From the NCBI GenBank assembly GCA_964550295.1, contig CAZJYV010000001.1, positions 1-34,611 on the forward strand: a stretch of 34,611 bases of DNA. Direction: 5' to 3'. This DNA is from an uncultured Clostridium sp. GTDB taxonomy: Bacteria > Bacillota > Clostridia > Christensenellales > CAG-138. The notes beneath the pieces were generated by a model. That model saw only the letters and a program-made list of their open reading frames with translations, was not told the origin of the DNA and searched no databases. This document shows positions 4,695 through 34,611 of this stretch, piece after piece. The stretch's first letter is position 1. Each line of letters starts with the position of its first letter. Made by a program: the position numbers and the translations under genes.

Positions 4695-6074
4695 ATGGAA
4701 GATTCGGTCCGGGAAAGACCGGTTGTCAAACGCCGGATCTTGATACGCGTTATCGCGGTCGTTCTTGTGGTAGGCCTGATCGCGACAGCGGGGTTGATCG
4801 AAGCGAGCAGAATCGTTTTTGGCGATGTCGCAGGCGCGAATGCCGCTGAGCAGGATGCGGCGGATTACATAGAAAACACCACGGAATATCTCGGCGCGCC
4901 GCTCACCCAGCGCATGGCGAACGTGCTTTATTCCTACCTGAGGGAACCTGTGACATACGCGGATCATTATCTGCGCATGTCGCTTTCGATATCAAAAGGC
5001 GCGTATTCCGACGCGGCGGAAAGCTGCGCCCGGTGCATTGAATTGTGGAACGATGAAGATCAGCCCCTGTCGGAACTTTGGACCAGACTCGCCTGTCTCG
5101 ATGCGCTGCTGGGCGACTACGAGAAAGCTCGGGATGAGCTGGATACAGCCGTCGGACTGGGCAGCGCGGCAGACGATCCCACGATGTATCTGCTCCGCGC
5201 GCAGATGAGCGCACAGCTTGGCGAAGCGGAGCCGGCGTTATCCGATATAACGGCGTATGAGAGCCTGACCGGGGATGCCGTGTCACTGCTTGCGATCAAA
5301 GGCCCGCTCTACGAAGCAACCGGCGCGTATCTGCTGGCGGAGGAGGTTTATACGGCGATGTTATCCGTCGCGGACGCGGGCGCTTCCGATCCCGCCATAT
5401 ATGGAAGCCGCGCGCGGGTGAGGCTGCTGATGAACGATTATGCAGGCGCGCGCGCGGACGCGGAAGCCTTTTTTGCGGCGGGGTGCGCGGATGAAGACGG
5501 CGCCACGCGTTATATTTTGGCCGCATGCACCCTGCAGGAGCAGAATTACGCCCTGGCGGAGGAGAACTTCCTGCTTGCGCTTGAGGAAGGATATCCCAAT
5601 CCAGCCGAGGTGTATCCCTCTCTGGTATATGTCCGCTATATGCAAGGCGACCTTGTTGGCGCAAAAACGGCGGGAACAGAAGCGCTTTCCATCGAAGGCG
5701 GGGAAACGGCTGAGCTTTTGCAGTGGATGGGCGTCATCGATATGGCGCAGGGCGCGTATGACGCGGCGTCGTCGTATTTTGCCCGCAGCGCAGCGCTCGA
5801 TGATACGCAAACGGATCTTTACTACTACATGGGCGTGTGCTTGGTCGCACTCGACGATTATCAAGCGGCGGCGGACGCATTTACGGTATCTGTGGGGCGG
5901 GGTGAATCGCTCGCGGAAAGCTATTACAACAGGGGCGTCTGCTACGCGGCTCTTGAGCAATATGAAAGCGCTTATGCCGATATGCTTTCGGCCATCGCGT
6001 TCTCGCAGGATGGGGAACTCACTGCTTCGGCGACCGATCTTCGGGACAAGCTCGCCAAAGCGCTTGACAAATAA
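4695..6074 (+). CDS. N-terminally membrane-anchored TPR-repeat protein (459 aa)
   Basis: This is a track ORF. It has a basic N-terminus followed by a TM span, ILIRVIAVVLVVGLIATAGLI. Repeated TPR-like helical pairs follow, e.g. YYYMGVCLVALDDYQAAADAFTVSV and YYNRGVCYAALEQYESAYADMLSAI. Confidence 0.75.
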   Translation: MEDSVRERPVVKRRILIRVIAVVLVVGLIATAGLIEASRIVFGDVAGANAAEQDAADYIENTTEYLGAPLTQRMANVLYSYLREPVTYADHYLRMSLSISKGAYSDAAESCARCIELWNDEDQPLSELWTRLACLDALLGDYEKARDELDTAVGLGSAADDPTMYLLRAQMSAQLGEAEPALSDITAYESLTGDAVSLLAIKGPLYEATGAYLLAEEVYTAMLSVADAGASDPAIYGSRARVRLLMNDYAGARADAEAFFAAGCADEDGATRYILAACTLQEQNYALAEENFLLALEEGYPNPAEVYPSLVYVRYMQGDLVGAKTAGTEALSIEGGETAELLQWMGVIDMAQGAYDAASSYFARSAALDDTQTDLYYYMGVCLVALDDYQAAADAFTVSVGRGESLAESYYNRGVCYAALEQYESAYADMLSAIAFSQDGELTASATDLRDKLAKALDK

Positions 6075-6136: not shown

Positions 6137-6238
6137 ATGAAAAAACTTCTTGGCAGCCATGCGAAATTCACGATGGGGGCGCTGCTTGCGTTTTTGGTGG
6201 CGTTTGCGTTGATTTGGACGCCGTCCGCCGCGCTGGCC
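6137..6238 (+). other. Sec-type signal peptide of the giant protein (34 aa, predicted cleavage ALA|EE)
   Basis: MKKLLGSHAKFTMGALLAFLVAFALIWTPSAALA|EEST has a basic n-region, a hydrophobic core and an AxA site. Confidence 0.8.
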
Positions 6239-24200: not shown

Positions 24201-27200
24201 CGCTCAACCCATACAATTCCGGCAGCCATATGGCGTATGCCGTGACGGGTGCAGCCTACGGCGTAGATATTGCCTTCATAAGCGGCGGGGCAAACAGCGT
24301 CAACGCCTCCGCCGGGACGACAAATGAATCTTACATTCATGCAAGCGGAATCACATCCACGGGCAACCTAGGCGTAACCGCAACGACGGTTGCGGCGGCT
24401 AAGGCGGAAGCGCTTGATGCATCCCTCCTGAGCCTGAGCGGAATCAAGCTTGCCGCGACAAAGGTGACCTCCGGCTGCGCGGATACCACAAAGGCATATA
24501 TCTACGGAAGCGGAACTGCCATTGCAGCCTACGACGTGCTCGTTCAGGCTACTTCAAACGCGGGCGTGCAAAGCAACGTCATGCCCCCGCAGGTATCGGT
24601 CAGCCTCGTCGGCGGCACGAGCGTAAACGGAACGGCGGATGTTTCAAACGAAGTGACTCGCGCCTATATCGATACGGGCGTTACGGTCCGGGCAAACAAC
24701 TGCCTGAGCGTGGACGCAGCGCAGAGCGTGTGGGCGAAGGTCGTGTGCGCGTATGCGCAGAGCTACTCCGCCATTCAGCTCGGCGGCTACTCGCTGACTG
24801 CCAAGGTAACCAAAGCGGAAGCGCTTGCATATATCAACGGCACGGCGGAAGCGCAGGACTCTGTGACGCTGAGCGCATCAAGCGGCGTGACTGAACTGAG
24901 CGTATCCTACGAAGCACTCGCGGCTTCTCTCTTCAGCGGCAGCGCAAACTCCGCGGCGGAGGCGAAGGTACTCGACCAGACGGCTTACGCCAACGTCGGC
25001 GCAGGCGCGAAGATCGCAGCGCGCATGGGCGATATCACCATCTCCTCGCGTACGGCTTCCAACGTCAGCTCGTCGATCAGCAGCACAAATTACGCCGGTT
25101 TGACCACGGGCGGCCAAATCAGCGCCTATTCCTACGTGAAACGCGACACGCGCGTGAGCATCGGTGACGGCGCGCTGGTTGAATCCCGCTACGGCAGCGT
25201 TTACATCGAAGCGCTCGCCGATTATGCCACGGTAAGCTCTCGGTCGCGGGATGACAACGGTTCCCTCCTGAGCATCGGTTCCGGCCCTGTCGCAACCTCA
25301 AACATCAACAGCACGGTTTATGTCATCGTCGGCGCGGCAACCATCAAGGCGATTTTCGGCGACCTGACGATCATTGCCGATGCTTACAGCAGGATCAGCG
25401 CGCTCGCGTACCGCAACATGAAGGCCTTTGCGGGCGACAATACGAGCAGCGCTTCCATCGCGGCAACGGAAACGGTCAAGGTGCTGCTGGGCGCGGATCT
25501 GGCGGGCGTCAACACGACAAACAAAGCCTATATCAACGCGCTCAACACGCTTGTGCGCGCGTACATCACGGATCAAACGCTCTATTCCTACGCATACTCC
25601 TATACCATCGCCGCCGGATCGAAGACGGAGTCCTTCTCCGTCCTGTCCGCTTATGACGATATCGATGTGCTCATCGGCAACGCGTATGTCGGCGGAATCG
25701 ACTCGCTTTCAATCGAGGCCAAGCACATCAAGCTTGACGCGCACGCCGAAAGCTATTCGATCATCAACGCGGGCGTTACCGGCAAGGTGTACGCCACATC
25801 CACCATCAACGGCTATTCAAATGTGGATGTCAATGTCAGAAGCAGCGCCGAGCTTGCGGGCGAAAAGGTGAACCTCGCCGCCTATGCGCCGACGTTTGAT
25901 AATGGTACGGTCTTTAAGGATGCGACCGCCGTCGCCAACACGGTCATCAGCTGGATCACCCGTACCATCCAGAAGGTTTCCCAGTGGATCGAGAAAAAGG
26001 TATCCAAGATTCCGTTCATCGGATGGCTCATTAAAAAGATCGTCCATAAGATCGTTGAGTGGATCACCGAGATCATCAAAATCATCACCTACTCCGACTC
26101 CGAAAGCTTCACGACCGGCTCACTCGATTCGCAGGGCGACCTCGTTGCAGGCGTGTATATCGCCTCCGGCGCAAAGGTGCACCTCGGCGGCGCGGCTGCG
26201 GGCATGCAGATCGACGTTCTCCAGGACGGCACCGTCATGGCCGCCGGACTGGATAATGACTACGACGGCAACCTGAGCGCGTTCTATACGATTCAAGGCG
26301 AAAAAATGCTGTTCGGGCCGATTTACAACAATGACGCGGGCACGCTCACCATCACCGTGCACAATGGCAGCCTGAACACGGCGAGCGCGTTTACCGCTTA
26401 CGGAAACGCCTATCTTGCGAACATTGTCATCAACAATGACTCTAATCTCGATCTGGTGTTCGATGTGTTCCGGGTTGCGAACCCCGCGGCGATTGCGCCG
26501 GATGTGCAGTCCAGCGCGAACAACAATTACCAGCCCGTTCTGGTCTATGCGGACGAAATCCCGGTCATCACCATCAACTCCGCGGGCGGCGGCGACGTCG
26601 TGTTTACAAAAACCGTTGAAAACGTGCGCGGTTCTATGACAATCGCCATGACGGGCGGCACCCCCGGCGACATATATGCCATCCACGATGAGCAGGGCAG
26701 CGCGATCCGCGTGAATCGGTTCACCGCGTACGGCGCACACAACATCGGCAAGTCTCCGACGGACAAGCTGATCGTCGAGTTCTATAACGCAAGCGCCAAA
26801 CCCGCTCAGTATGGGTCAGACGGCAGAATGGTGCGCATGGGAGAAACCGCGCGTACCTCGCTGATGGATGTTGAAGCGGGCGGCACAATCTATATCTCGA
26901 TCTGCCTCGTAGTGGATATCGGCGAAATCGACCTGACGGGAACGACCATTTCCGCGTATGTCGCCGCATTGAACCTGCCTACACCCAAGCTGACCGTCGA
27001 AAAGATACGCGCCGGCGGACAGGTCTATATCGAGCAAAAACAGACGCGCATCCGCTATACCGATGTTTCGTTGATCGCGAGCGCGGATGTGGATACGATC
27101 AGCTACCCCAACGGCTCGATGAGCTTCGTGGCGAACTTCCCGGCCGTTGCACCGGGCGCGTCCGCGAGTCTGATGCAGTTGGAAGGCACAAATTACTGGT

Positions 27201-30200
27201 ATTCGCCCGCTACGGGACTGATCAGCATCGACGCGCAGAATTTCGCATTCTATGCCGGCACCCTCGGTACAGCCCATGTGAGCAGCGACTATACGACCTA
27301 TCAGCTGCCCAACAGCGTGACGGTCACCATCCTCAACGCCACGGGCAAAATCGTGAGCGTATCGCGCCTGAGCAGTTCGGGCGGGGCGGATGAGGTTTAC
27401 CAGCTCAGCGACTTTACCATCACCTACGATGTGAACGGCAATCTCGTGCTGACTCTCCCCTCCACCGCAGAGAATGAAACGGGCACATCCGTCACCATCG
27501 ACCGGGAAACCGGCGAGGCAACCATGAAGATCGCCTCCAACGGCGCGGCGATTTACCTGCGCCGCTCGGCGGGCAGCCTCGGCTGGGAACTGCCAAACGG
27601 CATCCTGATTTACTTCAAATCGGCGTTCGTGCAGAACGGCAAAATCGTGGATGTGACGTGGATCGGCAAGAACGGAACGAACGATCTGTATGTGCTTGAG
27701 GATCTCAGTGACACGGCAAGGAACACCTTCCATGTTGTCGAGATGGCGTCCGGCGGCACGGGCAGCGCGTTCGTGGCAGGCTATCTTTACACCAGAACGC
27801 AGCTTACCGACCTGATCAACGGCACTGCGATCAGCTACTATAACAACATTGACGAGGCAATCGAGGCGATTGAATCGGCCGTTTCCGGCATCAATCTGAA
27901 TTCCCTCGGCCTGTCGTTCGACAAACAGTATGTGCTGGATGAGGATAACAAACCGACCACCGAAATCGACATCGCGGCAACATACGGTTCTTTGGGGAGC
28001 GAAAACGCCGATGCGCTCACCGCGATACTTACGGCATTGCTCACGGGCATCACGGCGGAGCTGACGAACAACCTTACCATCATGCTCGACGGATTTGAAC
28101 TGAGCATCCGTGTTTCCACCAACGGCGCCAACTTTGCCGTAACAAAGCTGAGCGTTGGTTACAGCGTCAGTGATGCGAACCTGCCCGAAGGCACGGCAGC
28201 CACGCTCGGCACGGCGATTAAGAACGGCTCCGGAAACGGAACGCTGTACAGCTACACCAACGATTACGCCGTTGGCGACGAACTTGAAGGGCAGGGCGCC
28301 GACACGGCGATCACCGATTACGGATACACGCACACGGCCACAGAGGGCACGCTCGAAAGCATCAACGTGATCCGTTCCTACAAAACCGTTTCCGGTGAAG
28401 AAACCGTCGTCTATACGCTGCGCACCGCAAGAAAGAGCGGCGAGCTGACGTTTGTGAGCAGCAAGGAAAACAAGGATGCCGGCGGAAACGTCGTGAGCGT
28501 CACCTCATACTACTCCTGTGCGCTTGCCGGGTTTGAGGGCATCGTGTTTGCCATCAACGTCAACATCGCAAGTCCCGACAGCAGCACGCTTCGTGCGTTC
28601 CGGTTGGCGCAGGGCGCGTCGGGCGAAACGACCGCCACGGCGGACAGCGGCGGCATTTACACGATCACCGGCATGAACGGCGGCTATGTGGTCGTCAACG
28701 GCAACTACCGCTTCATCGACGATGCGTCCGACATCGCGGATCCTACCGCCATCCTTTACCTGACGCAGGACGCCGTGGCTGTTTATCCGGACGGAAAAAT
28801 CGGCTTGGTCGCAGTTGAAGGCGGCACGGTCGAGGTGGATCCGGATACGGGCGAGCGCAAATACATCGCGGCGAAGATCGCCATCGCGCCCACGCTGACA
28901 CAGAAAAAGGACGCTGACGGAAAATTCGTCTACTCGTCCATCCAGTATTATTATAACAAGAGCAATGTAGCCCAAAGGATGACGTACGCGCAGTACCTTG
29001 CGTGGGTTGCCGCGGATTCTGCAGCACAAACCGCTTACCAGGCCGCCATGGACGCGCGCGCCGCCGAGCTGGATGCAGCCGTCGCCGCGGAAAAAGCTAG
29101 GTATGAACAGATGGGACTCTTCCTGTCGAGCTGGGATGAGGCGATCTTCCGCTCTTCCTACAACGATTATACGACGCAGCTGCCTGACGCAGTCACCTAT
29201 CAGGTACCTTCGTGGTTCCGCAGCGGCAATTACGCCATCGAGTATGATGCCGTGAACGGCCTGCCTGTTTACAGCGTGTATAAAGATTCCCCTGACAGCG
29301 AGCTTGACTATTATAAGGTCGACTACTACGGCTCGTTTGAACAAATACTGGCGCTCGCTCGGCTTTCGGGCAGCGGATACACACTTAATTCGCATTTGAC
29401 CCAAGCGCAATACGATGCGCTGCCCTATACCTTAAAATCCCTGTTTACGCCCGTCTATAAGAGCGTGTACAACTACATCGACGGCACGGTGATCATCTCG
29501 CCCGATGTGGATAGTCTCGGCGCGTATGTCACCTATGTGTCCGGCGCGAACGTACCCGCGTTCGACATTCCGATGGACGAGTTTGGGCGCGGCATCCTCG
29601 ATAAGGAAACCCGTATTGTAGCGGTGAAGGATCAGACGACGGGCAAATATACGAACCTGAACCTGATCTTCCTTGGTGCGGATGGCGATGTGGCGGCGGT
29701 CTACGACGGCACGGGTCTGCGCTTCAACGAAGGCGTGAGCGCATACGATGCAGCGACGACCGTGTGGTCCGCGTACGCGCCCGCCCTGGTCAACGGGGAG
29801 AATAACCTGCTCGTTTCCTATGACAAGGGCATGATGGTGAAGTTCCTCGAGGTGATGTCCGGCGTGTATACGACGATCGACAGCATCATCACCGATAAGG
29901 ACACCCTTAGGTGGGATTATGCAAACGCCCTGTACTTCACAGACGGCACCGACGGGCCGATGCTCCTTGAAAAGAGCGACACCTATTACGCGTACGACCT
30001 CATCGACAATATGTTTAACCGGCTTGCCGCCAAACCGACGGAAGGCGTCGAGGGAACCGATTATTTCAGGGCCGTGACGCTGACCAGCCCCGCAAACGGT
30101 CTGATCAAACTTTCCATCATGGTCGACGTGGCTTTGCCGCAGAGAACGCGCGCCTTTGAACCCGCACGCACGTTCTTCGTGCTGGCGGACGGCGATACGC

Positions 30201-33200
30201 TGGGCAGCAGCGACGGCGCGCAGGATCTGCTGCTCATGCGCAGCACATCCTCTTACCTGCCGCAGGAGATTGCGATGAACGGCATCGTAGAATCGATGGA
30301 GACCTCGGGCGAAAAGGTGATCATCGTCGTCGAGAGCGAGGGCGAAACCTGGATCGGCTCCGCAGGCGCTGGCAGGCGGGACATTTATGCCGACGAGGTA
30401 TCCTTCTACGTCAACGGCAGCGCAAGCTCCATCGGCACAAGCCTGGATCATGTATCCATCGGGGCGTTCAGCGCGGACAACCACACCGTTACGATGTATA
30501 TCTTCGGATATGACCCCGCCGGACTGACCGTACCCACCTATTCCGGCAGCGCATTCCTCGATGTGTTCGATCACATGGTGCTGCGTTCCGCCGAGCTTGA
30601 AGGCGGCAGCCTGATCGAGTACCACCTGTTCAACGGTTCGAGCCTAACGTTCCTCGACGCGGATATGGCAGGCACGGTGCGCGTAACCGATGAGGCGGGC
30701 GGCGTAAGCAATGTGACCATCGGCACCAACGGAGCAAGCGGCGATTTGGGCGGCATAAGGCTTGCGGGCGGCACGCTGGACATCGATGTGGACGGCGACA
30801 TCGCGTTTGACAAGATCGAACTTTTGGGTGGTGCGAAGCTTTACCTGCGTACGACCTTCGGTGGAATCAGCCATGTAGGCGCAGGCGGCTACCTCTATGC
30901 GGACGCGAGCGCGGGCAACGGCATCGTCCTGCGCGCGGCGGGGAATATCGGGCAGGCATCGAACCGCCTGATCATCGACGTACCCGCGTCGCTCACCGTT
31001 GAAATCGAACAGGCACTGAATATCTATATCGAAGCCGTCGCACTCACGGGAAACGTGCCATTTGCGCGCGCGTATCCCGCGGATCCCGCGCAGGCGGGCG
31101 GGCGCGATGTGAACGGCAACCAGGCATCCGGCGACTTGATGGGCGACGCGGGCGGCGAAACCGTCAACGTACCCGTTGCGAATCAGTCGCCCGAGGCGCT
31201 TTCCGACAGGCTGCTGACCGATTGCGCGGACGACCGCACAAAATGGACAGGCGCAATCAACGACGCGGGGCTTGCGGCTTACATCAACGCCGTGATGGCG
31301 CAAACGAAAGACAGCGCCGATATGCTCAGCAAGAGCGAGCTGATCAAACTGCTCAACCTTGCAGTGCCCGTCGGCGGAACGAAATGGACTGCGGCCACCC
31401 TCGCCGCGAAGACGGATGCAGAGGTTGCGGCGCTGCTCAAGGCGGCCCTCGAACTCCGGAACGCGGGGGATACGGCCTATGTGCTGACAAATGAAAACGT
31501 CGGCGGCGCGCTGACCCTGCTGCTTGGCAGCGACGCGTTCAACAGGAACGGCGCGGGAAGCCTGAGCGAGCTGCTCGAAACGCTTCTGACGGACGAGGAG
31601 CTCGAAAACCTCACCCAAGGCGCGTGGGACGGTGCAACTTATCCCGCTGTCACGCCCGTGGATACGCCCGCAAAGGCGTTCAGCCTGCATATCGGGCAGA
31701 GCACAGGCGCGACGTTCGTTTCAAACGAGGGCGATATCATCATCCTTCAGGATACGGGCGATTTCACGGCGGGTGGTATTGAAAGCCGCCGCGGGGATGT
31801 GCGAATCACAGCGAGCAACGGCGATATCGAGGGTGGCGCGACGAGCGCATCCGATCCGGCCAACATCGTTGCGCGCAGCATCATCCTCAACGCTTCCGGC
31901 GCAATCGGCGGGAACACGCCTCTTGTGATCGACGAAGTGGATAACAGGATCGTTCCCGTTGCAAACATCACAGCGCCCACGGCAAACAGCGCGCCGGCGA
32001 CCGGCTACAAAGATGTAACGGTCGTATACGCGGCGGATCTGGATGGCGACGGCAATCCGATTGCGGGCACGTGGGGATTCCGCCTTGCGGTCGATATTCA
32101 ATACACTTGGATACGCCAATTCTTCGCGGCGGACGCCACGCGCATCGATGCGAACGCGGGCGGTTCAATCGCGATCACCGAGCGAAACGGCAACTTCGGC
32201 GCGGGCATCCTCACCTCCGGCGGCGACGTAACGCTGAACATCGCGGGTGACCTCCTCGACGCGCGGACGGACGCCGAAAGAACCGCTGGTACGCGGAACA
32301 TCACCGGCGCGGGCGATCTGGATGTGACGCTGACCAACTGCGACGTGGGCACGGCAGCCAAACCCATCGCCGTGCGCGTACCCGGGTTGATGCGCGTCAC
32401 CTGTTCGGGCGATGTGTATATTGATGCGCTGGGTAGCCTTACGCTCGATATGAACAGCGGCACAGGGCATACGCAGATTGCGGTCGAGCAGAATCTCACC
32501 CTCAACAGCCTTGGCAGCGCACCGCTCACCGGCAGTGCGCTTGCGGGCGGGTCGATTGCCATCAGCGCGGCGGGCGATATCGGCACGGCGGCCTCACCCT
32601 TTGCGGTGGATACGAACCGACTGCTGACGGGCGGAACGCTGACGCTGACAGGGGCGAACATCTATATTGAAGAATTAACGGGCGATCTGCTGCTCCGGGG
32701 GCTGACGGCTTCCGGCGAAGCGTGGCTGAGCGTGCCGGGCAAACTCCTTGCCGCCCCCGGCAGCGACCTTTCGATTGAGGATGCAGCTGACGCGCAGGCG
32801 GCGGCGAACGAAGCCAAGAATGCAGCCGACCAGGCGCAGGCGGACGCACAGGTCTATGATCGGTATGCAGTCCGACTCGAGGCAGTGGCCGATGTGCGCC
32901 GGCAGGCGAAGCTTGCGGCGGAACAGATCGAGGCTGACGCACTGGCCGTCCTTGCCGCTGCGCAGACTGCCAACTCCGGACGCAAAAGCGCCGAGATCGA
33001 AGCAGACATCCTTGCGAAGAAAGACGCGCGCAACCTGCTCAACCCGCTGGATGCGGACTATATGACAAACTATCTGGCGCTAACGGCCGAAATCAACGCG
33101 CTCGCCAGCGAACTTGCCGCCAAAAAGCAAACCCAGCAGCAAGAGGATGCGGCGCGGGCAGCTTACGAACGGGCGCATGGCGTTGCCGAAACGGCCAGAA

Positions 33201-34611
33201 GCGCATTTAATGCGACGGCGCTTGCGGCGTCCGGTGCGCGCACGGAGGCAAACAGGCTTGCGGGCATCGCAGCGGACAGGCTGAACGATTACGCAAACGC
33301 GCTCTCAACGCTTGAAAGCAGACTGCTTGCGGCGGTTGCGGCAACCTCCGCCGTGACCACGGGCGGAAACCTGACCCTGATTGCGGGCGGCGGCGTCGGC
33401 GAGGGCTGCGCGCTGCGCGCGAACGTCGGCGGAAAACTGTTTGTCGCGGGCGGAACGGGCGGCGTATCGATTGCCTCGGGTGCGGATTTGGCCATAGGCG
33501 GCATCACCGCGGGGGGAACGGTCAGCGTCAAATCGCTTGGCGGCATAACGGGTGCGGCGGACGAAGGGCAGGCTGATCTCACAGCGCCGACGGTGCGGCT
33601 CGTATCCCTCGGCTCGCATGACGTGGGCGCGCGGACCGACCCGGTCCGACTGAGCGCGGACAGCTTCTCCGGCTCCGGCAGGAACGTATATCTGACAAAC
33701 GATCGGGCGATTGTCCTTGGCAGTGTGACGGGCGACCAGGATGTCGTCATCCGCGCGGCGGGCGATATATCGACAAGCGGCGGCATACTTTCAGCCTTCA
33801 GGCTGGAGGTCGCGGCGGACGGCGATGTGAACATCGATACGAGTGCGGGCAGCCTGCTTGTTACCGGCAGGAACATCACGATCGTCAACCATTCCCCGCA
33901 CCTGAACGTGCTGGAAATGAAGGGCGAAACGCTCACGCTGGCGACGGACGGCTCCCTCGGGACGGATCCGCATGGCACTGGCATCGAGGGACGGAGCCTG
34001 CTGATTGCCGCAGGCGGCGACATCGGCACCAAAGACCAGCCGCTCAGGGTTCTCATTACGGGCAAGGTCGAGGCGACATCGCTCTACGGCGAAGTGCATA
34101 TCCTGCTGCTGCAGGACAAGAACGCGAACTATTCGCATCGCGTGCTGAAGGATGAAAAGACAGGCGTTATCGTTGAGGGCCACAGCATCCATTGGGCGAC
34201 GACGCTGCGCGTGGATGATATCGACTTCGACGGGGATTCACCCCTGCTTGAGATGATCCGCGCGGCCATCAGGGCGCACAAGCTCCTCGCAGGTTACGAG
34301 ATCGTGCTCGATGCGGGCGGCGCGCAGGCGTATCGCGGCAGGCTTACGATCACCATCCCCGTGGATGAAGCGTACAACGGGCGGACGGTGTATGTGCTCT
34401 ATGAGGATCAAAACGGCGCGACGGTCAGCGTGGAATGCGTGGTTGAAAACGGTGCTGTGACCTTTGTGGCGGAGGGATACACCTCTACGGTGGCGGTGGT
34501 GCTGCCTTTGGTCGGCATCCCGCAGACGGGCGGCGCATGGCTGCCCATCGCGTGGCTGCTGCTTGCGGCCGGACTCGTGATGTTTGCCGCAGCGCGCGGG
34601 AGAAGGAAAGA
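6137..34611 (+). CDS. Giant secreted, cell-wall-anchored beta-strand-repeat fibre/adhesin-like protein; at least 9,491 aa, 3' end just beyond the window
   Basis: It is not in the ORF track. ATG 6137 is preceded by AAAGGA, with 7 nt between. I read all 9,491 codons in phase (position mod 3 = 2) and found no stop. The track lists no + ORF in this phase after 6137, as expected for an ORF with no stop in the window. The N-terminus is a Sec signal peptide. The C-terminus is IPQTG, a 21-residue hydrophobic span and RGRRK, and the window ends 2 nt into the next codon. Confidence 0.93.
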   Translation, partial: MKKLLGSHAKFTMGALLAFLVAFALIWTPSAALAEESTDTTADPGASDVDTSGGTAPGTATVGSIVEEGTEQVAQGEAKIYDNAPVEQTTTTGGETTTTEVEKSALQKAVEYALTQIQADTESITITLTEGTYTGDVAIDKTNLGGVDTSNFKLFILASDAVVTDDGGNTTYTNANGATKVNGNITIDGLDVVLAGIYMAVDKAINAKNTDVSIFGTTAGDTYTVNVGGREGEDDDQTEVSVAGGAGGDTISVTAQTGNADIDIDGGDGGDVISVDGTTAPDAQGTSVDVSGGAGSDVINIDTSVAGGASLVSVNGGSGDDKVHLTGYLDEDDKDQDGADAPRIGGSATRIDLRNKNNKALGLAFSGVELFTDALYNKACVTVAAIGADGRLYSDAEKTQLITFSPFTDYSYDAISGETITGISDTSSGAFLASFWITCIETDFNGINNDITLGNINLPGITLVVRAGKVTVTGIVNALSIRIFATDSDDLYKEYILNLDELPLPDGLANSAAGQSLDVNGSLLDFVTNAYINIKEGAHLNANGSVELTATSSQTHALIDLINGITNALNFICVKVGSASITIDGTVSGTNVSATAATNVTMSASNSTLAPYFVPLAVSVCVADARVTLSDTGSITATGNVNLSSTSTIQVTTEACTGSIPFSLAVSVVVSDAHTSVAGDITAGGDINLTTAATEDVTTQSHRGNASTGSSGGYFAIAVTLQDADASVTGTSALSALGGINVKSTAIEKVLTTATSAKPEEQNGGTTLDKVIAKVKELLSTVAGKLGGAIKNKITGATGNMTGAQYTIAASSTTNGTVSAPVSKANAGDTVKLTLTPAKNYEVDQAYIKYLEPGKSSYTTVGLSNGSFVMPAFNVTIVVTFKKTAGTPADDDTSSLYGDGDATKPGDLFDDEDDGGGDLGISDLFDEGAGGTQGTSGGASENSADAGAKTVTLTQPANGALLCAVTKVDAGKQVAVTVNPASGYKLTENSLTYTYNDPDNAGKKLTNVIRANASGAYLFTMPDADVTVTCAFEAGTDTTTNNNTPSGNQLTGALAVAVVINNNKAFIDTTGAVGAAGQVNVTTVGVTQSTVGADGSPAAKEITADTAAGESLRDPQSSTTFGQEKGHLTVKPTVNGSIQLLSNNDVQIGDTVAFLVVPAEGSKLKEGSVQYVVTYKDDTGTHTATLTPTKDGSVANKYYFVIEHPAGGVLDAACTFVLSAEFEADPHAITVNITGGGTATAGAASAKAGDEITLTLTPNEGCGVKTVKVNGVAVTAADGVYKFKMTATDAVVDVVFGDKEYAVVLHEDSAAVSSYIKISNSKADIGDRIAVTLTDEAVALGKKIASVSVEFYNFGGALQASIQVTVDADNTFVIPDSVDGYVSNELGTATFKVKVTLSDKTYALTTEVLPASGTATPAPSGTISAPAKVDSLEQISVTITPNAGCKLVPGSVKVITTNGVQNTTVTIVIDTLTFDGTKYTFTYKLPILSAAGTETSTVKIQAQFQRGTETTTKKDTVSLGVGIAVGVTLHKSEAYVQNADITASGLNIAATSGSRDERVISSVTAKAGVAAGTIGIGGAVAVNVASAKTHALLYNTATVRLTGGGTMSMEASSFERFTTIGDAANNTGSSTSVGIGAGIAVGVYGVEVYGAVEDATDIAQAQGAADIQSITIGAEHDLAESMLAKAGSAGGTSITPVLAVLISGADVQAYLGKAPTGANGTLSVASDITIKAASSINREMAANAAAAGSSVGFGGAFAISVLNDSAIARLSRNVHVKNGNISVIARSRNNLKSTSRAGANGAPASGGSTAADGSGDSSAGGSSSSGSTGDGSGSSDAQADKALTSGGKLANLTGTNNTSSNTLGKQNYNRQPSQTSEGSVSIAAGFALNIMRNDCRAYLDDGITVEAHGTDEIDSSGNTVRKGEVNVQSFSLVGAQIAANASATKSKIGVGVAVAINIVTYQNSAYVGNSLVNCNYINVTALMEEKVKTTKVTPTAAVTDANILVTLVKNAISGFLTDLEEELGLSQYFDANGVDEKYTLSGIIETIISSVLGKGLNALLAGTGLEKLLSSDIAEKLQSVKDSIFNIFTSDEATAEALTRLKTIAIQDLISLVAGMVTQMAQQGNAQQQQGADADAAKQQQNNQSVKDKIITTIKEKITFSNLSAAAQVEGAKFLTTLADQLVGSFGGDLIDVNALTNYLKTNLSAHLMTSLKSALSTAGVALTTAALDTLTYYMGTKLEGDTRPTNTFKTEAVAGAGAGSVGVAGSVALSVITGSTKAYIADYNAALAPSAGTGIIAAKMTTIKAYALQNEYTVASGAVGGKGTADANLGAGTSTTNDTAAQNNTTNETTPDPDGGEGETPTAGGEQTNGKLRVVTSTGGTATAYGYQSKDDGQCTVEVTCDPGYVVDEITATITTGAGVAPTVWATTANREYKFSMGGLVSGNAGGDLVITINVTFKKTQSDPYTVTVGATTNGTVKVHSDTNETDAASTTAKESEKVYVVISPSAGYTLDTLTYTYKGQTKKIVSQESSATKTTFIFLMPNADATVNATFKAVDPNAPVNTQNTNSSGKSVGVGAAFALTVSVFTVEASIGANRTVTSGGIELGADGEKKNTTSSVAGSDPLANASDGTSKDISLDASAAVAIQTTSITATVKSGAVITANGGNTVTVTEAVKDAEGNVTAPAVLAGFYMHAKEIATTIVKASSFAVGAETAVGAAVAVNIAISDVAARFLGTGAVSGKARLEATSLSKDDSHALATAMGADMQRYTDKFAKGQEQAENFANNMSSGKYFDNTGSTANTNNGTAGKVNSSLNNNANNEQGGSQPQASNDLPLSTNALRAQNASTEDQAQTNSTTTTGTTTANNNTGSTTNPDTNTSNPTGVTTTQTQTNKQSVQIAAAVAVNVTVHAIEAMLAGALTASEFEIEAENNGNFRTIASGAAMSLAQNSNAVAAAVAVSVNRNEALASIADGSTVTMTRDSSGSGAVTVAATLTANLNDAYRGYLGAQAIAGAVSGSGGKVSFGGALAVIVSRAVTSATIGKNVHLYNGGSVVISAVDKTKLALRAGGVSVSKGGSAVGVGASFAVIYAHNEITAAIGDNSDLHVGSLKLIAEKQRLDMSDYENAAGFDRLLTDTSNLSAAEREQANTGIISVYREKDAATGKLSDSYKVEVNITTEKIIGALDLLNFLSACNYYAEAISGSIVAGAGQDAKASVAGSLAMIFFFNTINALIGSSVNIVSEGDVAVEASNDATVRIIAGSLTVSPAKVGVGATVGFILNSDTVTARVGESSAISAGGAYKQDASGKANVQVYTIAASISAGANESTATVGGTVNAIAAKNAVLSEIAQDVVVDAASVAVISSLAMEMMLISLSISAGNSKVAVGGTVAVIVDQSSAKTKIGEDVTLIAQTGAGVSNTLVSALASASGAPQGVTVAGVLSVLVALFKSNVEIADGAYIEAKLGNVRVASTAKSFMVIVGLAATGSAAGSAAVGATISVNVFQHESKVAIGTVVMKAGGDITVFATGEDLTILVNMALAAAGSGSAIAGTLPVVVSDTEIEASIGDNSKISAMGSIAVAADLTSKTIDVAGGLAAGGGSAGVGATLSTAVYMSKITARVGSGVTIYAGAAGLGVLTPNRSEKRRGILVSATGNELLILVAISAGAAGTAGVAGVINTLVAKNDVSATVGSGSSLFAGYREGETEGAPVATGHEGQITVEADDETAIANCAGALGAGGTAGVGATVVVLVFCKTVTADLSSAAIVRASGNVNVTANAKDDLWLLALAFGAAGTAGVAGGVNALVFTNKVNALLGGTIDAGGDVAIKASSDSGLYNVAAGLAFGGTAGVTAVAVVTYFYNETIARITDNTHLQAGGAVSVRAESDEFVTADAAGVSGGGTAGVGGTLDIIITKVVTKAYTGSNVRVTCGGALSVTAIDTYSLIAAVVTVAVSGTAAVGVTVLVSLSFNTINAEIGLNNIITAGSVTVQASSNRDILTVVATAAGSGVAGVGVSLSVVVAGSKISQDAHDGIYAGGSSMDPQAQTDGAFSAGNAAALEGQKPGDDLGDMLEGDGQNVGNEDYNSYGQDTSGQYYVRPGSGEDTTASGVLRGTDGFYYRPERSEDELTKRYTFTKDGAGGNVFTKAVFYVVSGADAEGNPVYEQLNEDAASSISGDLYARKMVDGAYEYHKVDKNTRSEGSDAGMNDETYDQTAEGMQYAGGKITGLTDTTSAVINGGSSVLTTAGNIDVLANDTINANMIAGTIAIGIGGAGVGVGLSVAVLMSNVNAIVADDATLSAQGNINIIASSGSLAKPIEQLTSGSNGADGSPNAVGTQGANDMAKDQTGNDGTAATIRLISVTGAGGFVGVGVSAAVLMVFSNVQAKLLGDVTRADAVTVSGKMNFGEVLTVTIGVAGGAVAVNVSAGVAYFGGTIETAIGGNAKIGGVSGTIKVETTGVANTISAAAGIAGGAVAVNAGIALAISRTKIHTYVGRGVTVNIPGSVEVYTGFTSNCTAMILSIAGGAVAVGATAAIAINNTQAYTYIGITPSGDVAQGSSLTGGKVTASGVQVASTLAGNTYVAGVGIAGGAVAVNATVALGFNRVKNITAINGAGIETAGNIELSGGLSGNTTVVTTSIAGGAVAVGATVALAQIKSENRVFIDSTGVTVKAANIAVKAGDIGAINASEASVAIVAGTAGAIAVALNFAIALNQAKNSAEIIGTRGSEASGVYNLDASGLIEIGAKGEAHAFAIAANASAGLVAASASFALAIIQSTQQALLTGTSKIRAARLSVWSIHNTETFVPKVFSLFSGYDRNSSGEYIDENGSVIQESDADFEQKRVEKSTSFTATGAATALIISAAAGYYTITANSVIAVADATSRAKVSVSDLTVTGAGGASVANTADSSAIAKTLNLSFGGFSVGVMTGVAYASGTFEAIFESNGTVELASAPLTVTNLYASSAITEILTASAGILLNVGINTANAVANSIANTGLSGTGSIRAGAIEIRADGTATASAGVSAPALLKNVPSFSTISVAANSAFAQVSAVQNTYVHKVTIDAVSLLAHSIFNYTVDDITPANSGMKADTGAIANVGGSGKGPGGVSVRLIGVELNLANAVMEAKNELILSGSNITLTGDLSVRNDSGANATAGVYQSADAGFVGIGLVQVSANTAGSFIACVNIAAGKRVKARTITVQTTYRSVATAKSAQATNGVSANVLAVNSNIATSVVGSQAEASVTGGGEVETEDDLSVQAFGTAKAWSGFEPLAVAISGGAAAINCLYATLSGTQKALVNGVKVKVGQDMTVLSTFNVGVEDGAFAVLSGGMQGGGSGIDNIKVQVGALTVAGSVAVATSDFTVQALLENADVQVTGDLLVKVDATSVATAKLADDTLKINGLAVGLNFMFAWAKGAYEANIITASGKTIEAGTISVSTIYTTSALAQTGQLSGGMGDLLSANLSYISVNANLGAALSATTAKAAVTGNGTVKTTANPVTGAALDVTATGLADAKAENLAATINLSYIKVGLVVMSADVTVQQSAFVSAGTVSCASARVVSSLNEGWTDKGANAYIGSALNADKSGFDSLNLSVYGGSVNTATATFGGSNTAYIANASIGSAAARATSVIVKTVGTAIALADIAQGNTIGLANIGANVLYAYANGTYTAKVENSVIYAKTLTVETDYTAGATASTTQGAFGLKGVALDANVAWAETTTAGYAYISGGSVDIDSSGKLTVKVTSNATAVSNFATPTISLSGISLAFNLLTAKLNGTAQAYVSGSSVKAAGGADVLVFYNNDATKPGAAVYMNSYGSLASCSLISGGGHVLNATDTSSASAYVSNASFAQGTGAVTIDTRGNSYAVVDKGGSYVNFNIVALGVLVASATADGRFSAYLALQNGNQVHASSLYVGATYSIRAKAIAGQPSLGTNISLIDIDYNQAVAKAGDDKSTALNGDAHITAAGTTLIDVAGDVQILLDGKIEAIARIDAASINISGVDVGVNVVDAYAYAKQKTYISGVRSFLTGGNLTVDATLNPYNSGSHMAYAVTGAAYGVDIAFISGGANSVNASAGTTNESYIHASGITSTGNLGVTATTVAAAKAEALDASLLSLSGIKLAATKVTSGCADTTKAYIYGSGTAIAAYDVLVQATSNAGVQSNVMPPQVSVSLVGGTSVNGTADVSNEVTRAYIDTGVTVRANNCLSVDAAQSVWAKVVCAYAQSYSAIQLGGYSLTAKVTKAEALAYINGTAEAQDSVTLSASSGVTELSVSYEALAASLFSGSANSAAEAKVLDQTAYANVGAGAKIAARMGDITISSRTASNVSSSISSTNYAGLTTGGQISAYSYVKRDTRVSIGDGALVESRYGSVYIEALADYATVSSRSRDDNGSLLSIGSGPVATSNINSTVYVIVGAATIKAIFGDLTIIADAYSRISALAYRNMKAFAGDNTSSASIAATETVKVLLGADLAGVNTTNKAYINALNTLVRAYITDQTLYSYAYSYTIAAGSKTESFSVLSAYDDIDVLIGNAYVGGIDSLSIEAKHIKLDAHAESYSIINAGVTGKVYATSTINGYSNVDVNVRSSAELAGEKVNLAAYAPTFDNGTVFKDATAVANTVISWITRTIQKVSQWIEKKVSKIPFIGWLIKKIVHKIVEWITEIIKIITYSDSESFTTGSLDSQGDLVAGVYIASGAKVHLGGAAAGMQIDVLQDGTVMAAGLDNDYDGNLSAFYTIQGEKMLFGPIYNNDAGTLTITVHNGSLNTASAFTAYGNAYLANIVINNDSNLDLVFDVFRVANPAAIAPDVQSSANNNYQPVLVYADEIPVITINSAGGGDVVFTKTVENVRGSMTIAMTGGTPGDIYAIHDEQGSAIRVNRFTAYGAHNIGKSPTDKLIVEFYNASAKPAQYGSDGRMVRMGETARTSLMDVEAGGTIYISICLVVDIGEIDLTGTTISAYVAALNLPTPKLTVEKIRAGGQVYIEQKQTRIRYTDVSLIASADVDTISYPNGSMSFVANFPAVAPGASASLMQLEGTNYWYSPATGLISIDAQNFAFYAGTLGTAHVSSDYTTYQLPNSVTVTILNATGKIVSVSRLSSSGGADEVYQLSDFTITYDVNGNLVLTLPSTAENETGTSVTIDRETGEATMKIASNGAAIYLRRSAGSLGWELPNGILIYFKSAFVQNGKIVDVTWIGKNGTNDLYVLEDLSDTARNTFHVVEMASGGTGSAFVAGYLYTRTQLTDLINGTAISYYNNIDEAIEAIESAVSGINLNSLGLSFDKQYVLDEDNKPTTEIDIAATYGSLGSENADALTAILTALLTGITAELTNNLTIMLDGFELSIRVSTNGANFAVTKLSVGYSVSDANLPEGTAATLGTAIKNGSGNGTLYSYTNDYAVGDELEGQGADTAITDYGYTHTATEGTLESINVIRSYKTVSGEETVVYTLRTARKSGELTFVSSKENKDAGGNVVSVTSYYSCALAGFEGIVFAINVNIASPDSSTLRAFRLAQGASGETTATADSGGIYTITGMNGGYVVVNGNYRFIDDASDIADPTAILYLTQDAVAVYPDGKIGLVAVEGGTVEVDPDTGERKYIAAKIAIAPTLTQKKDADGKFVYSSIQYYYNKSNVAQRMTYAQYLAWVAADSAAQTAYQAAMDARAAELDAAVAAEKARYEQMGLFLSSWDEAIFRSSYNDYTTQLPDAVTYQVPSWFRSGNYAIEYDAVNGLPVYSVYKDSPDSELDYYKVDYYGSFEQILALARLSGSGYTLNSHLTQAQYDALPYTLKSLFTPVYKSVYNYIDGTVIISPDVDSLGAYVTYVSGANVPAFDIPMDEFGRGILDKETRIVAVKDQTTGKYTNLNLIFLGADGDVAAVYDGTGLRFNEGVSAYDAATTVWSAYAPALVNGENNLLVSYDKGMMVKFLEVMSGVYTTIDSIITDKDTLRWDYANALYFTDGTDGPMLLEKSDTYYAYDLIDNMFNRLAAKPTEGVEGTDYFRAVTLTSPANGLIKLSIMVDVALPQRTRAFEPARTFFVLADGDTLGSSDGAQDLLLMRSTSSYLPQEIAMNGIVESMETSGEKVIIVVESEGETWIGSAGAGRRDIYADEVSFYVNGSASSIGTSLDHVSIGAFSADNHTVTMYIFGYDPAGLTVPTYSGSAFLDVFDHMVLRSAELEGGSLIEYHLFNGSSLTFLDADMAGTVRVTDEAGGVSNVTIGTNGASGDLGGIRLAGGTLDIDVDGDIAFDKIELLGGAKLYLRTTFGGISHVGAGGYLYADASAGNGIVLRAAGNIGQASNRLIIDVPASLTVEIEQALNIYIEAVALTGNVPFARAYPADPAQAGGRDVNGNQASGDLMGDAGGETVNVPVANQSPEALSDRLLTDCADDRTKWTGAINDAGLAAYINAVMAQTKDSADMLSKSELIKLLNLAVPVGGTKWTAATLAAKTDAEVAALLKAALELRNAGDTAYVLTNENVGGALTLLLGSDAFNRNGAGSLSELLETLLTDEELENLTQGAWDGATYPAVTPVDTPAKAFSLHIGQSTGATFVSNEGDIIILQDTGDFTAGGIESRRGDVRITASNGDIEGGATSASDPANIVARSIILNASGAIGGNTPLVIDEVDNRIVPVANITAPTANSAPATGYKDVTVVYAADLDGDGNPIAGTWGFRLAVDIQYTWIRQFFAADATRIDANAGGSIAITERNGNFGAGILTSGGDVTLNIAGDLLDARTDAERTAGTRNITGAGDLDVTLTNCDVGTAAKPIAVRVPGLMRVTCSGDVYIDALGSLTLDMNSGTGHTQIAVEQNLTLNSLGSAPLTGSALAGGSIAISAAGDIGTAASPFAVDTNRLLTGGTLTLTGANIYIEELTGDLLLRGLTASGEAWLSVPGKLLAAPGSDLSIEDAADAQAAANEAKNAADQAQADAQVYDRYAVRLEAVADVRRQAKLAAEQIEADALAVLAAAQTANSGRKSAEIEADILAKKDARNLLNPLDADYMTNYLALTAEINALASELAAKKQTQQQEDAARAAYERAHGVAETARSAFNATALAASGARTEANRLAGIAADRLNDYANALSTLESRLLAAVAATSAVTTGGNLTLIAGGGVGEGCALRANVGGKLFVAGGTGGVSIASGADLAIGGITAGGTVSVKSLGGITGAADEGQADLTAPTVRLVSLGSHDVGARTDPVRLSADSFSGSGRNVYLTNDRAIVLGSVTGDQDVVIRAAGDISTSGGILSAFRLEVAADGDVNIDTSAGSLLVTGRNITIVNHSPHLNVLEMKGETLTLATDGSLGTDPHGTGIEGRSLLIAAGGDIGTKDQPLRVLITGKVEATSLYGEVHILLLQDKNANYSHRVLKDEKTGVIVEGHSIHWATTLRVDDIDFDGDSPLLEMIRAAIRAHKLLAGYEIVLDAGGAQAYRGRLTITIPVDEAYNGRTVYVLYEDQNGATVSVECVVENGAVTFVAEGYTSTVAVVLPLVGIPQTGGAWLPIAWLLLAAGLVMFAAARGRRK
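6866..7108 (+). repeat. Four RTX-like Ca-binding nonapeptides (GGxGxDxUx)
   Basis: The four copies are GGAGGDTIS (6866-6892), GGDGGDVIS, GGAGSDVIN and GGSGDDKVH (7082-7108). Each is followed by a short beta-strand-like segment, and they are 9-16 residues apart. Confidence 0.7.
8552..10651 (+). repeat. Cluster of six roughly 75-105-aa beta-sandwich modules resembling divergent InlB B-repeat (Flg_new-like) domains
   Basis: Module coordinates are 8552-8785, 8984-9235, 9515-9805, 9815-10027, 10034-10336 and 10337-10651. The shared pattern is (T/N)G(T/S)(V/I)...(A/I)G(D)xV/I x(L/V)T(L/V)xP..GY/C.(L/V)...(F/Y)x(F/M)(M/T)(P/A)..(D/N)(A/V)(T/V)(V/I)...F. An example is NGTVSAPVSKANAGDTVKLTLTPAKNYEV...GSFVMPAFNVTIVVTFKK. 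The family name is from memory. Confidence 0.6.
12085..12890 (+). other. Helical insert of about 268 aa, rich in Leu, Lys, Glu and Gln, that interrupts the repeat region
   Basis: It begins MEEKVKTT...LTDLEEELGLSQYF, continues through IAEKLQSVKDSIFNIF, and contains the Gln-rich tract QMAQQGNAQQQQGADADAAKQQQNNQS. It ends LKSALSTAGVALTTAALDTLTYYMG. It has no GxGxxVAVN units and its heptad-like hydrophobic spacing is visible by eye. Confidence 0.6.
13250..13798 (+). repeat. Second cluster of two InlB-B-repeat-like modules
   Basis: Modules lie at 13250-13516 (...GGDLVITINVTFKK) and 13532-13798 (YTVTVGATTNGTVKVHSD...EKVYVVISPSAGYTLDTL...FIFLMPNADATVNATFK). They follow the same pattern as the first cluster. 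Confidence 0.6.
14519..14818 (+). other. Asn/Thr/Gln/Ser-rich low-complexity linker (about 100 aa)
   Basis: NTGSTANTNNGTAGKVNSSLNNNANNEQGGSQPQASN...TNSTTTTGTTTANNNTGSTTNPDTNTSNPTGVTTTQTQTNKQ. Confidence 0.85.
17117..18180 (+). repeat. Seven consecutive units with the 'A-G-T-A-G-V-(A/G)' core
   Basis: The cores are AGAAGTAGVAGVINTLV, GAGGTAGVGATVVVLV, GAAGTAGVAGGVNALV, FGGTAGVTAVAVVTYF, GGGTAGVGGTLDIIIT, SGTAAVGVTVLVSLSF and AGSGVAGVGVSLSVVV. They start near 17117, 17330, 17492, 17651, 17810, 17979 and 18130, so the spacing is about 150-215 nt. Confidence 0.8.
18197..18787 (+). other. Acidic, Tyr/Gly-rich non-repeat insert of about 195 aa
   Basis: QDAHDGIYAGGSSMDPQAQTDG...GDDLGDMLEGDGQNVGNEDYNSYGQDTSGQYYVRPGSGED...GFYYRPERSEDELTKRYTFTKDG...DGAYEYHKVDKNTRSEGSDAGMNDETYDQTAEGMQYAGGK. 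Repeat units flank it on both sides. Confidence 0.8.
19360..20065 (+). repeat. Five consecutive units with the core (I/V)AGGAVAV(N/G)
   Basis: The exact 20-mer ATCGCGGGCGGTGCGGTTGC occurs at 19520 and 19679. The exact 20-mer ATCGCGGGCGGCGCGGTCGC occurs at 19874 and 20030. Spacings are 159, 195 and 156 nt, all multiples of 3. A fifth copy, GVAGGAVAVNV, lies near 19360. Confidence 0.9.
22930..25000 (+). repeat. Gly-poor repeat dialect marked by x-A-Y-(I/V)-x-x-(G/A/S), period about 165 nt
   Basis: The signatures are NTAYIANAS, GYAYISGGS, AQAYVSGSS, ASAYVSNAS, FSAYLALQN, QKTYISGVR, NESYIHASG, TKAYIYGSG, TRAYIDTGV, ALAYINGTA and QTAYANVGA. They lie near 22937, 23267, 23434, 23618, 23782, 24146, 24332, 24497, 24664, 24829 and 24985. 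Confidence 0.8.
25943..26092 (+). other. Trp/Ile/Lys-rich amphipathic helix of about 50 aa in a local GC trough
   Basis: VISWITRTIQKVSQWIEKKVSKIPFIGWLIKKIVHKIVEWITEIIKIITY has four W-initiated units of 11-13 residues (WITRTIQKVSQ / WIEKKVSKIPFIG / WLIKKIVHKIVE / WITEIIKII). It is the only segment of this composition in the ORF. It sits exactly at the junction between the repeat region and the non-repeat region. Confidence 0.8.
26093..31680 (+). other. Non-repetitive region of about 1,860 aa with mixed composition (richer in Tyr, Asp, Glu, Phe and Leu) and unknown function
   Basis: I translated it codon by codon. It has no GxGxxVAVN or xAYI periodicity. It contains a DxDxDG loop (DIDVDGD, 30779-30799), an Ala-rich helix (29000-29110, AQTAYQAAMDARAAELDAAVAAEKARYEQ) and helical TKWT-initiated segments (31240-31620). 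I recognised no catalytic motif. Confidence 0.7.
32771..33345 (+). other. Ala/Gln/Glu/Arg-rich coiled-coil-like stalk (about 190 aa)
   Basis: SIEDAADAQAAANEAKNAADQAQADAQVYDRYAVRLEAVADVRRQAKLAAEQIEADALAVLAAAQ...LTAEINALASELAAKKQTQQQEDAARAAYERAHG...ANRLAGIAADRLNDYANALSTLESRLLAAVAA. It is almost free of Pro and poor in Gly, and beta-helix-like blocks flank it. Confidence 0.7.
34517..34611 (+). other. LPXTG-class cell-wall sorting signal: IPQTG, hydrophobic span and basic tail
   Basis: IPQTG lies at 34517-34531, GAWLPIAWLLLAAGLVMFAAA at 34532-34594 and RGRRK at 34595-34609. The window ends 2 nt into the next codon, so the stop must lie just outside. Confidence 0.85.

Follow-up and report, generated by a model that had tools for sequence, protein, structure and literature searches.

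The leukotoxin LktA of Fusobacterium necrophorum is exported by a type 5b two-partner system of this Gram-negative bacterium (10.1101/534297). Here, we analyzed a 34,611-nucleotide stretch of DNA from an uncultured Clostridium sp. of the Christensenellales (contig CAZJYV010000001.1, positions 1 to 34,611; hereafter referred to as the window), and within it the segment at 26093-31680 of a giant gene. The product of this gene (the parent protein) has the same 53-residue repeat type as the LktA family (NF012206), with scores at the cut-off in two 951-amino-acid (aa) pieces, and is likewise very large and presumably fibrous. It differs from LktA in having a Sec signal peptide and an LPXTG-type signal, whereas no two-partner-secretion (TPS) domain was seen with Pfam and no lktB-like gene was found beside it, and the segment itself is without any LktA repeat matches.

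In Gram-positive fibrillar adhesins, the adhesive domain is usually distal, i.e., N-terminal in LPXTG proteins. The parent protein resembles these adhesins in its signal peptide, long repeat stalk, non-repetitive region, and C-terminal sortase signal, but its unique region is anchor-proximal, no known adhesive domain family is detectable in it, and its stalk is probably a solenoid instead of tandem immunoglobulin (Ig)-like domains, with the InlB B-repeats (aa 850-1560) as an exception. RTX adhesins (e.g., MpIBP and LapA) are type 1-secreted proteins of Gram-negative bacteria, in which a distal C-terminal block carries sugar- or peptide-binding and RTX domains. Shared with them are thousands of extender-repeat residues and a mixed-domain block of one to two thousand residues near the C-terminus; the C-terminus of the parent protein, however, is anchored (the opposite topology), no RTX or lectin family was found, and a DxDxDG string within the segment is not conserved. 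Giant SLH-anchored surface proteins of Clostridia are represented among the distant relatives themselves, two of which (L006 and L007) combine an SLH end with the same cassette, whereas an LPXTG-type signal is present in the window protein and in its close relatives. In Pfam and PDB sequence searches, the modules of the cassette were without counterpart in described SLH proteins.

We regard the parent protein as a giant fibrous surface protein with a non-repetitive block built of orphan modules. Few genes of uncultured anaerobes are as poorly understood as those for giant surface proteins, and the present family joins LktA-type repeats, hitherto tied to Gram-negative two-partner secretion, with Gram-positive anchoring of the LPXTG or SLH type. 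The orphan block comprises approximately 1,100-1,900 residues; should its modules prove to be new folds or binding domains, domain catalogues would gain families, and the cassette could open a route to how Christensenellales-type bacteria attach to substrates or partners.

Composition and conservation of the segment

The segment is part of a single stop-free frame on the + strand (6068-34609; 9,514 codons), which is the only long one in the window. Residues are numbered with nucleotide 6068 as the start of aa 1, and 26093-31680 accordingly corresponds, in frame, to aa 6676-8537 (1,862 residues). The giant open reading frame (ORF) starts with ATG at 6137 and extends on the + strand to 34609 (at least 9,491 aa), with its stop codon beyond the window end.

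The first-pass annotation had described the segment as non-repetitive and distinct from what precedes it, and this description was confirmed. Within the segment, Gly/Ala/Val autocorrelation exceeded the shuffle null at no lag, and the LktA_tand_53 model (NF012206) gave no match at E ≤ 1 in the pieces aa 6658-7608, 7609-8559, and 8560-9510. Internal repeats were absent, and self-BLAST returned only long, composition-driven alignments of approximately 20% identity. Compared with the N-terminal 6,650 aa, the segment contained more Tyr (5.5 vs. 2.8%), Trp (0.6 vs. 0.2%), Leu (8.6 vs. 6.3%), Asp (7.3 vs. 5.2%), Glu (4.6 vs. 3.4%), Phe (2.9 vs. 2.2%), and Pro (2.8 vs. 1.4%), and the summed content of Gly, Ala, Val, Ser, and Thr per 300-aa window decreased from 52-63% upstream to 42-48% in the segment. 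The proposed compositional change at the segment is therefore real but moderate. It had been placed after approximately 6,600 residues of repeats; the shift stands, whereas the upstream 6,600 residues are not all repeats and also contain InlB B-repeat domains and helical and low-complexity stretches.

Relatives of the segment were few. A word-indexed search with the whole segment found one protein (P0001; 63% identity over full coverage), encoded in a metagenome-assembled genome (MAG) of a member of the Clostridia. Two loci were found among species-representative genomes, i.e., L001, a Christensenellales MAG from an anaerobic membrane bioreactor, and L002, Firmicutes bacterium ADurb.Bin248, which was 99.5% identical to P0001. 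A metagenome scan added one further locus (L003), which agreed with L002 in length, match coordinates, and identity and probably represents the same lineage. When 1.84 billion cluster representatives were searched by HMMER with aa 6990-8150, 11 clusters only were obtained. One of them, P0002, was 86% identical to the window without gaps over 3,292 aa, and nine were distant fragments with 21-36% identity. The contigs of distant clusters (L004 to L007) harbored giant genes of approximately 27-35% identity, frameshifted into 6-30 small gene calls. These frameshifts occurred in low-coverage or long-read assemblies. Since the distant giant genes are split in this way, protein databases hold only "hypothetical protein" fragments of them, public protein sets under-represent the family, and word-indexed searches miss it. 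The hosts are Christensenellales-type Clostridia of anaerobic digesters.

Three close relatives (63-86% identity) were colinear with the window, with very few indels; for the window, L001, and L002, this colinearity extended from aa 3346 to the C-terminus. Colinearity of the distant genes with the window protein began at aa 5000 or earlier (aa 3073 in L004) and reached the C-terminal region, and the modules termed H, S1, A, C, and D (described below) were present in the same order in L004 to L007. The distance from module H, at the 5' border of the segment, to T1, the block following the segment, was 1,911 aa in the window, 1,908 aa in L004, 1,875 aa in L007, 1,985 aa in L006, and about 2,200 aa in L005. 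L004 lacked about 680 aa of the repeat region and kept the cassette, which is in accordance with the expectation that homologues keep this region while repeat number varies.

The ratio of non-synonymous to synonymous substitution rates (dN/dS) was calculated by the Nei-Gojobori method for two pairs, L001 vs. L002 and the window vs. L001. In no part of the protein did it reach 1, and across the protein, 60-codon windows had a median of 0.31 and a 90th percentile of 0.55. The values were 0.19-0.44 in modules A and C to G and highest in module B (0.38-0.74), where windows at aa 7300-7450 reached 0.66-0.87. The segment is under purifying selection and as constrained as the remainder of the protein, although one of its modules (B) evolves fast. 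A poorly conserved, disordered spacer had been considered as the outcome that would speak against a functional segment; instead, the colinearity of the close relatives, the ordered modules in four distant genes, and the purifying selection point to a conserved, family-specific, non-repetitive cassette.

Modules of the cassette

The segment was heterogeneous and comprised two flanks (aa 6676-7020 and 8101-8345), a core (aa 7021-8100), and an end (aa 8346-8537). The two flanks, approximately 590 of the 1,862 residues or roughly a third, are solenoid-like in look. To judge from sequence comparisons, the core consists of distinct modules that are probably unrelated to one another or to the repeats. 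All modules given below are encoded on the + strand.

The first flank, S1 (26093-27127, aa 6676-7020), was beta-strand-rich and is probably a beta-solenoid; it was present in L004, L005, L006, and L007. The second, module F (30368-31102, aa 8101-8345), is also a probable beta-solenoid. AlphaFold2 (AF2) models were computed from a two-sequence alignment (window and P0001) in two jobs. In these models, S1 formed strand stacks with a predicted local distance difference test score (pLDDT) of 58-75 at aa 6829-6997, and F formed regular short strands with a pLDDT of 50-71 at aa 8159-8289, so that the stacks of both flanks fell within 50-75. Profile-profile comparisons between modules by hhalign were all weak. 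Over 91 comparisons, similarity was found only for S1 and F, which matched the C-terminal solenoid blocks T1 and T2 with P values of 7e-4 to 0.012 (S1 vs. T2, P = 7e-4; F vs. T1 and T2, P = 0.004-0.012).

Two short strings within the flanks were rejected as functional motifs. The DIDVDG string of module F (30779-30796; DIDVDGD at 30779-30799) had been annotated as a Ca-type loop of the DxDxDG pattern, an assignment that is not supported, as position five is occupied by D, E, or G in the homologues (DIDVDG in the window, DVDVEG in P0001, DIDVEG in L002, and DIDVGG in L001). A calcium loop is also unsupported because the surroundings of the string, in the predicted solenoid, show an alternating, strand-like pattern. 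A P-loop-like GAHNIGKS in S1 (aa 6889), overlooked in the first-pass annotation, is a chance match, since P0001 reads GARNIGKG at this position.

The whole segment could be a more degenerate continuation of the beta-solenoid without a separate role. The AF2 strand stacks of S1 and F, their weak profile matches to the C-terminal solenoid blocks, and the top Foldseek matches, which were beta-helix proteins, are consistent with this explanation, although these Foldseek matches were non-significant (all E > 0.01) and were given no weight. Further solenoid had been named in the first-pass annotation as an outcome that would speak against its proposal; this may hold for the flanks aa 6676-7020 and 8101-8345, but hardly for the core, and for the segment as a whole we consider the explanation very unlikely. 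Modules A to E were without periodicity, repeat-model match, or profile similarity to the solenoid blocks, the core contains long helical stretches, and its motifs are kept position for position in the distant relatives, unlike interchangeable rungs.

Within the core, module A (27128-27877, aa 7021-7270) was conserved and beta-rich, with the motifs YxLPNG, GWxLP[ND]GxxxYxKxAF, and HVVE. It was matched by eight of the nine distant clusters in the exhaustive HMMER search (E values of 4e-25 to 1e-3), its alignment (A7) contained 11 sequences, and its dN/dS was 0.23-0.31. Module B (27878-28537, aa 7271-7490), helix-rich by sequence look, was the most variable part of the cassette, with 41-58% identity among close relatives and the few indels present. 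It was not detected with hidden Markov models (HMMs) in the distant loci, though its space is kept. Amino-acid change was thus concentrated locally in module B, within an otherwise constrained cassette. Module C (28538-29017, aa 7491-7650; alignment A8) carried the motifs LNGGY, YxFVD, and GILYLxxxAVxVxPDG and was present in L004 to L007, P0004, P0007, P0014, and P0016.

Module D (29018-29797, aa 7651-7910; alignment A9) consisted of an Ala-rich helix (29000-29110) and a subsequent Tyr-rich region, with the conserved core TPVYxxxxGxVxIxP...GAYVTY...FxxPxDExGxGIID; its residues 7770-7903 were matched in L004 to L007, P0007, P0015, and P0016. Modules A, C, and D showed no detectable mutual kinship even with deeper alignments. 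Module E (29798-30367, aa 7911-8100) was well constrained (72-76% identity, dN/dS 0.19-0.25) and had a single, weak distant match in L004 (E of about 1e-3).

The end of the segment, module G (31103-31678, aa 8346-8537), comprised a Pro/Gly/Asp-rich linker and, after it, a helical module in which two half-repeats (TKWT) are each anchored by a Trp. By direct reading, it terminates in the Pro-rich linker YPAVTPVDTPAKA, and a weak distant match was found in L006. The annotated TKWT helical pair was recovered as two motifs 47 aa apart, beginning at 31238; its origin by duplication is weakly indicated, as 9 of 500 shuffles reached the same score and only the Trp is conserved. As with this pair, the DIDVDGD string and the Ala-rich stretch were found at the positions originally given for them.

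No described family could be assigned to these modules. Pfam and NCBIfam, searched with the whole protein, gave no match in the segment, and neither PHROGs, tblastn against phage genomes, nor a scan of viral contigs matched it. Searches of PDB sequences with the whole segment, with a three-sequence profile, and with profiles of modules A, C, and D including the distant homologues yielded nothing credible; hydrazine synthase beta and lymphotoxin (module C profile) and cupin (module D profile) were motif-level chance matches. PDB relatives of the N-terminal 2,000 aa and of the C-terminal 976 aa were likewise not found. When all members of the module alignments were compared with Pfam, only sub-threshold noise was obtained (FlgD_ig, Big_1, and Phage_tail_C), and the sub-threshold Phage_tail_C match covered just 10 residues on LTQAQYDAL. 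Across the protein, Pfam and NCBIfam contained no adhesive-domain family, and sub-threshold Ig-like noise was seen in module A. Thioester and isopeptide adhesin domains were also considered, and no matching Cys/Gln or Lys/Asn/Glu pattern was noticed in a look by eye only. Two further homologue searches with alignments as queries were negative, one of them with a profile of mostly gap columns; both missed even P0001, a known positive, and therefore carry no weight. A literature search on the parent protein family retrieved nothing. The absence of matches in Pfam, NCBIfam, PHROGs, and PDB sequences makes the earlier expectation of uncharacterized domains in this region a fair one.

Position in the fibre and possible roles

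Signals for export and anchoring were read directly from the termini of the frame. A signal peptide was identified at aa 24-57 (6137-6238); the N-terminus, MKKLLGSHAKFTMGALLAFLVAFALIWTPSAALA followed by EE, is Sec-type in look. The last residues of the frame, ...VGIPQTGGAWLPIAWLLLAAGLVMFAAARGRRK, contain IPQTGG, a hydrophobic span, and the basic tail RGRRK, corresponding to an LPXTG-type sorting signal (34508-34609). The parent protein thus has [LI]PxTG, a hydrophobic span, a basic tail, and an N-terminal signal peptide. Profile models for the sorting motif did not fire on the window protein, whose ORF is truncated by the window end. In L001 and L002, the signal is located at about 18400-18514, with the termini LPQTGG...RRRKK/N vs. 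IPQTGG in the window. In two distant relatives, an SLH domain was found at the C-terminus (17739-18617 in L006 and 12822-13595 in L007). As these relatives carry SLH and not LPXTG, the cassette has outlived a switch of anchor, and the anchor type has been exchanged within one protein family (LPXTG-type vs. SLH).

No sortase gene was found within the window or the flanks examined. As for two-partner secretion, Pfam matched nothing but Flg_new_2 in the N-terminal 3,300 aa, so that a TPS domain was not seen, and no TpsB- or lktB-like gene adjoined the giant gene among the upstream genes of the window and the downstream genes of L001. Based on these signals, the parent protein is predicted to be a Sec-exported, C-terminally wall-anchored, fibrous giant surface protein.

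Because the anchor is C-terminal, the cassette would lie near the fibre base, 1,000-2,800 residues from the wall. It would then form a basal knob and not a tip, with the 6,600-residue stalk projecting beyond it. The first-pass annotation had assumed that the segment is the functional part of the fibre, with ligand-binding or effector activity; this assumption was not supported by the present results.

We tentatively favor, with low confidence (a probability of about 0.4), a role of the cassette as a knob close to the base of the fibre that serves, non-catalytically, in binding or architecture. A conserved cassette of several different modules would be inserted between the beta-solenoid blocks of the anchored fibre. 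We infer a globular fold for the core: aa 7021-8100 may form a compact knob immediately outside the cell wall, where the LktA-repeat stalk has its base, with aa 6676-7020 and 8101-8345 as putative solenoid connectors. Such a knob may bind a polysaccharide, an envelope layer, or a partner surface non-catalytically, or it may act as an architectural junction that sets how the stalk leaves the wall. Module B would present a variable surface, possibly bearing specificity. The residues invariant across distant homologues were mostly Gly, Trp, Pro, Tyr, Phe, and aliphatic residues, and a non-catalytic role is favored because these are of structural type and no conserved catalytic signature was found. 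In agreement with the first-pass annotation, no catalytic signature was recognized, HExxH being absent from the whole protein. Aromatic enrichment, with Tyr doubled and Trp tripled here, fits globular cores and carbohydrate-binding surfaces.

Several observations weigh against this interpretation. The mean pLDDT of the two AF2 models was 37.5 and 35.9, with only the solenoid-like flanks reaching 50-75, and Foldseek searches of PDB with these low-pLDDT models gave nothing at E ≤ 0.001 (best E, 0.015). The parent family amounts to about 11 protein clusters, mostly frameshifted fragments. Modules E, F, and G were weakly seen in the distant loci, where B, F, and G were not clearly detected. A non-catalytic role is argued from missing recognizable motifs, a weak argument for an orphan family, and in module A, a Lys, a Glu, and a His are almost invariant (the K of YxKxAF, LE, and HVVE). 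The wall-proximal position, moreover, speaks against a classical tip adhesin.

The Lys, Glu, and His of module A also bear on an enzymatic role, in which at least one core module would be a fibre-displayed enzyme of an undescribed family, either polysaccharide- or peptidoglycan-active or self-processing. Catalytic modules are in general frequent in large surface proteins of Clostridia, and the orphan status of the modules makes missing known motifs uninformative. Nevertheless, such an enzyme is highly doubtful, as no catalytic family was matched in Pfam, NCBIfam, or PDB sequences, structural types dominate the invariant residues, and the distant homologues showed no conserved constellation of Cys, Ser, or Asp.

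A purely architectural cassette, i.e., a hinge, oligomerization, or envelope-embedding node joining the distal stalk to the wall-spanning C-terminal part with its solenoid and coiled coil, would itself lack a ligand, which would instead be bound at the N-terminal tip or along the repeats. Its location near the anchor and between solenoid blocks, its solenoid-like flanks, and its length, which is tightly kept even across the change of anchor type, are compatible with such a node, and helical elements are available that could pair (H, the Ala-rich helix at aa 7645-7681, G, and the coiled coil at aa 8900-9095). However, four or more unrelated modules with approximately 1,100 residues in total are much for a joint, the fast-evolving module B (dN/dS up to 0.87) is more typical of an exposed interaction surface, and oligomerization is without supporting evidence. 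We regard a cassette of this kind as rather unlikely.

In a further reading, the core would consist of several undescribed folds forming a wall-proximal binding platform, by which Christensenellales-type fermenters would attach to partner cells or insoluble substrates in anaerobic digesters, module B would serve as a fast-evolving specificity determinant, and the hairpin at aa 6614-6675 would be a latch or envelope-interacting element. This reading is, in our estimation, quite improbable.

Remaining parts of the giant gene and its neighbors

The hairpin, module H (25907-26092, aa 6614-6675, + strand), is a predicted basic amphipathic helix-turn-helix rich in Trp, Ile, and Lys (TVISWITRTIQKVSQWIEKKVSKIPFIGWLIKKIVHKIVEWITEIIKIITY) that directly abuts the 5' side of the segment and thereby marks the border of repeats and non-repeats. 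With 82% identity to L001 and a dN/dS of 0.06-0.11, which is the minimum of the protein, it is the most conserved and most constrained piece. The turn KKVSKIPxIGW was invariant in L004 and L007, the two distant loci covering it, and AF2 modeled two helices with low confidence.

The densest LktA-type 53-residue tandem repeats of the stalk were located at 14627-20332 on the + strand. The protein was scanned in 951-aa pieces, and LktA_tand_53, with a curated cut-off of 50 bits, scored 51.0 bits at aa 2854-3804 and 53.4 bits at aa 3805-4755; a 3,501-aa piece scored 49.6 bits. Matches were obtained in the pieces between aa 952 and 6657, except for aa 4756-5706. Gly/Ala/Val autocorrelation at lags of 54-58 was above the shuffle null in aa 2900-4050 (0.17 vs. 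0.10), in line with a lag-54 periodicity of these repeats, and was borderline in aa 4250-6600. Further upstream, several divergent InlB B-repeat domains (Pfam Flg_new_2) were found at about 8615-10750 (aa 850-1560), and Flg_new_2 was the sole Pfam family above threshold across the 9,514-residue frame.

Near the mature N-terminus, at about 6830-7110 (aa 255-348), acidic GGxGxD-type repeats of RTX-like look were present (GGAGGDTISV...DIDIDGGDGGDVISVDG...GGAGSDVINID...GGSGDDKVHLTG). The distal end with these acidic repeats may be the real tip of the fibre.

The C-terminal context of the segment (31679-34609, + strand) consisted of T1 (aa 8538-8900), a coiled coil (aa 8900-9095), T2 (aa 9096-9345), and a C-terminal domain, followed by IPQTGG, the hydrophobic span, and RGRRK. 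The probable coiled coil is an Ala/Gln/Glu-rich stretch of approximately 190 residues (32765-33352) between two solenoid-like blocks. It is close to the anchor and among the less conserved parts of the protein (40-59% identity).

The start codon at 6137 is preceded by the purine-rich sequence GGAAAGGA. Antisense ORFs of 300-500 aa on the minus strand were treated as high-GC artefacts, because the + frame is conserved at the protein level without indels. The genes located 5' of the giant ORF were ordinary chromosomal genes encoding a GNAT protein, phosphoglucomutase, a DnaJ-TPR protein, a DUF5685 protein, and a TPR protein. The gene for the 459-aa TPR-repeat protein (4695-6074) is on the same strand, with 63 bases between its end and the start codon of the giant ORF. 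This pairing was seen in the window; the homologous loci stop short of the starts of their giant genes. Genes encoding a transporter and peptidases were identified 3' of the giant gene in L001.

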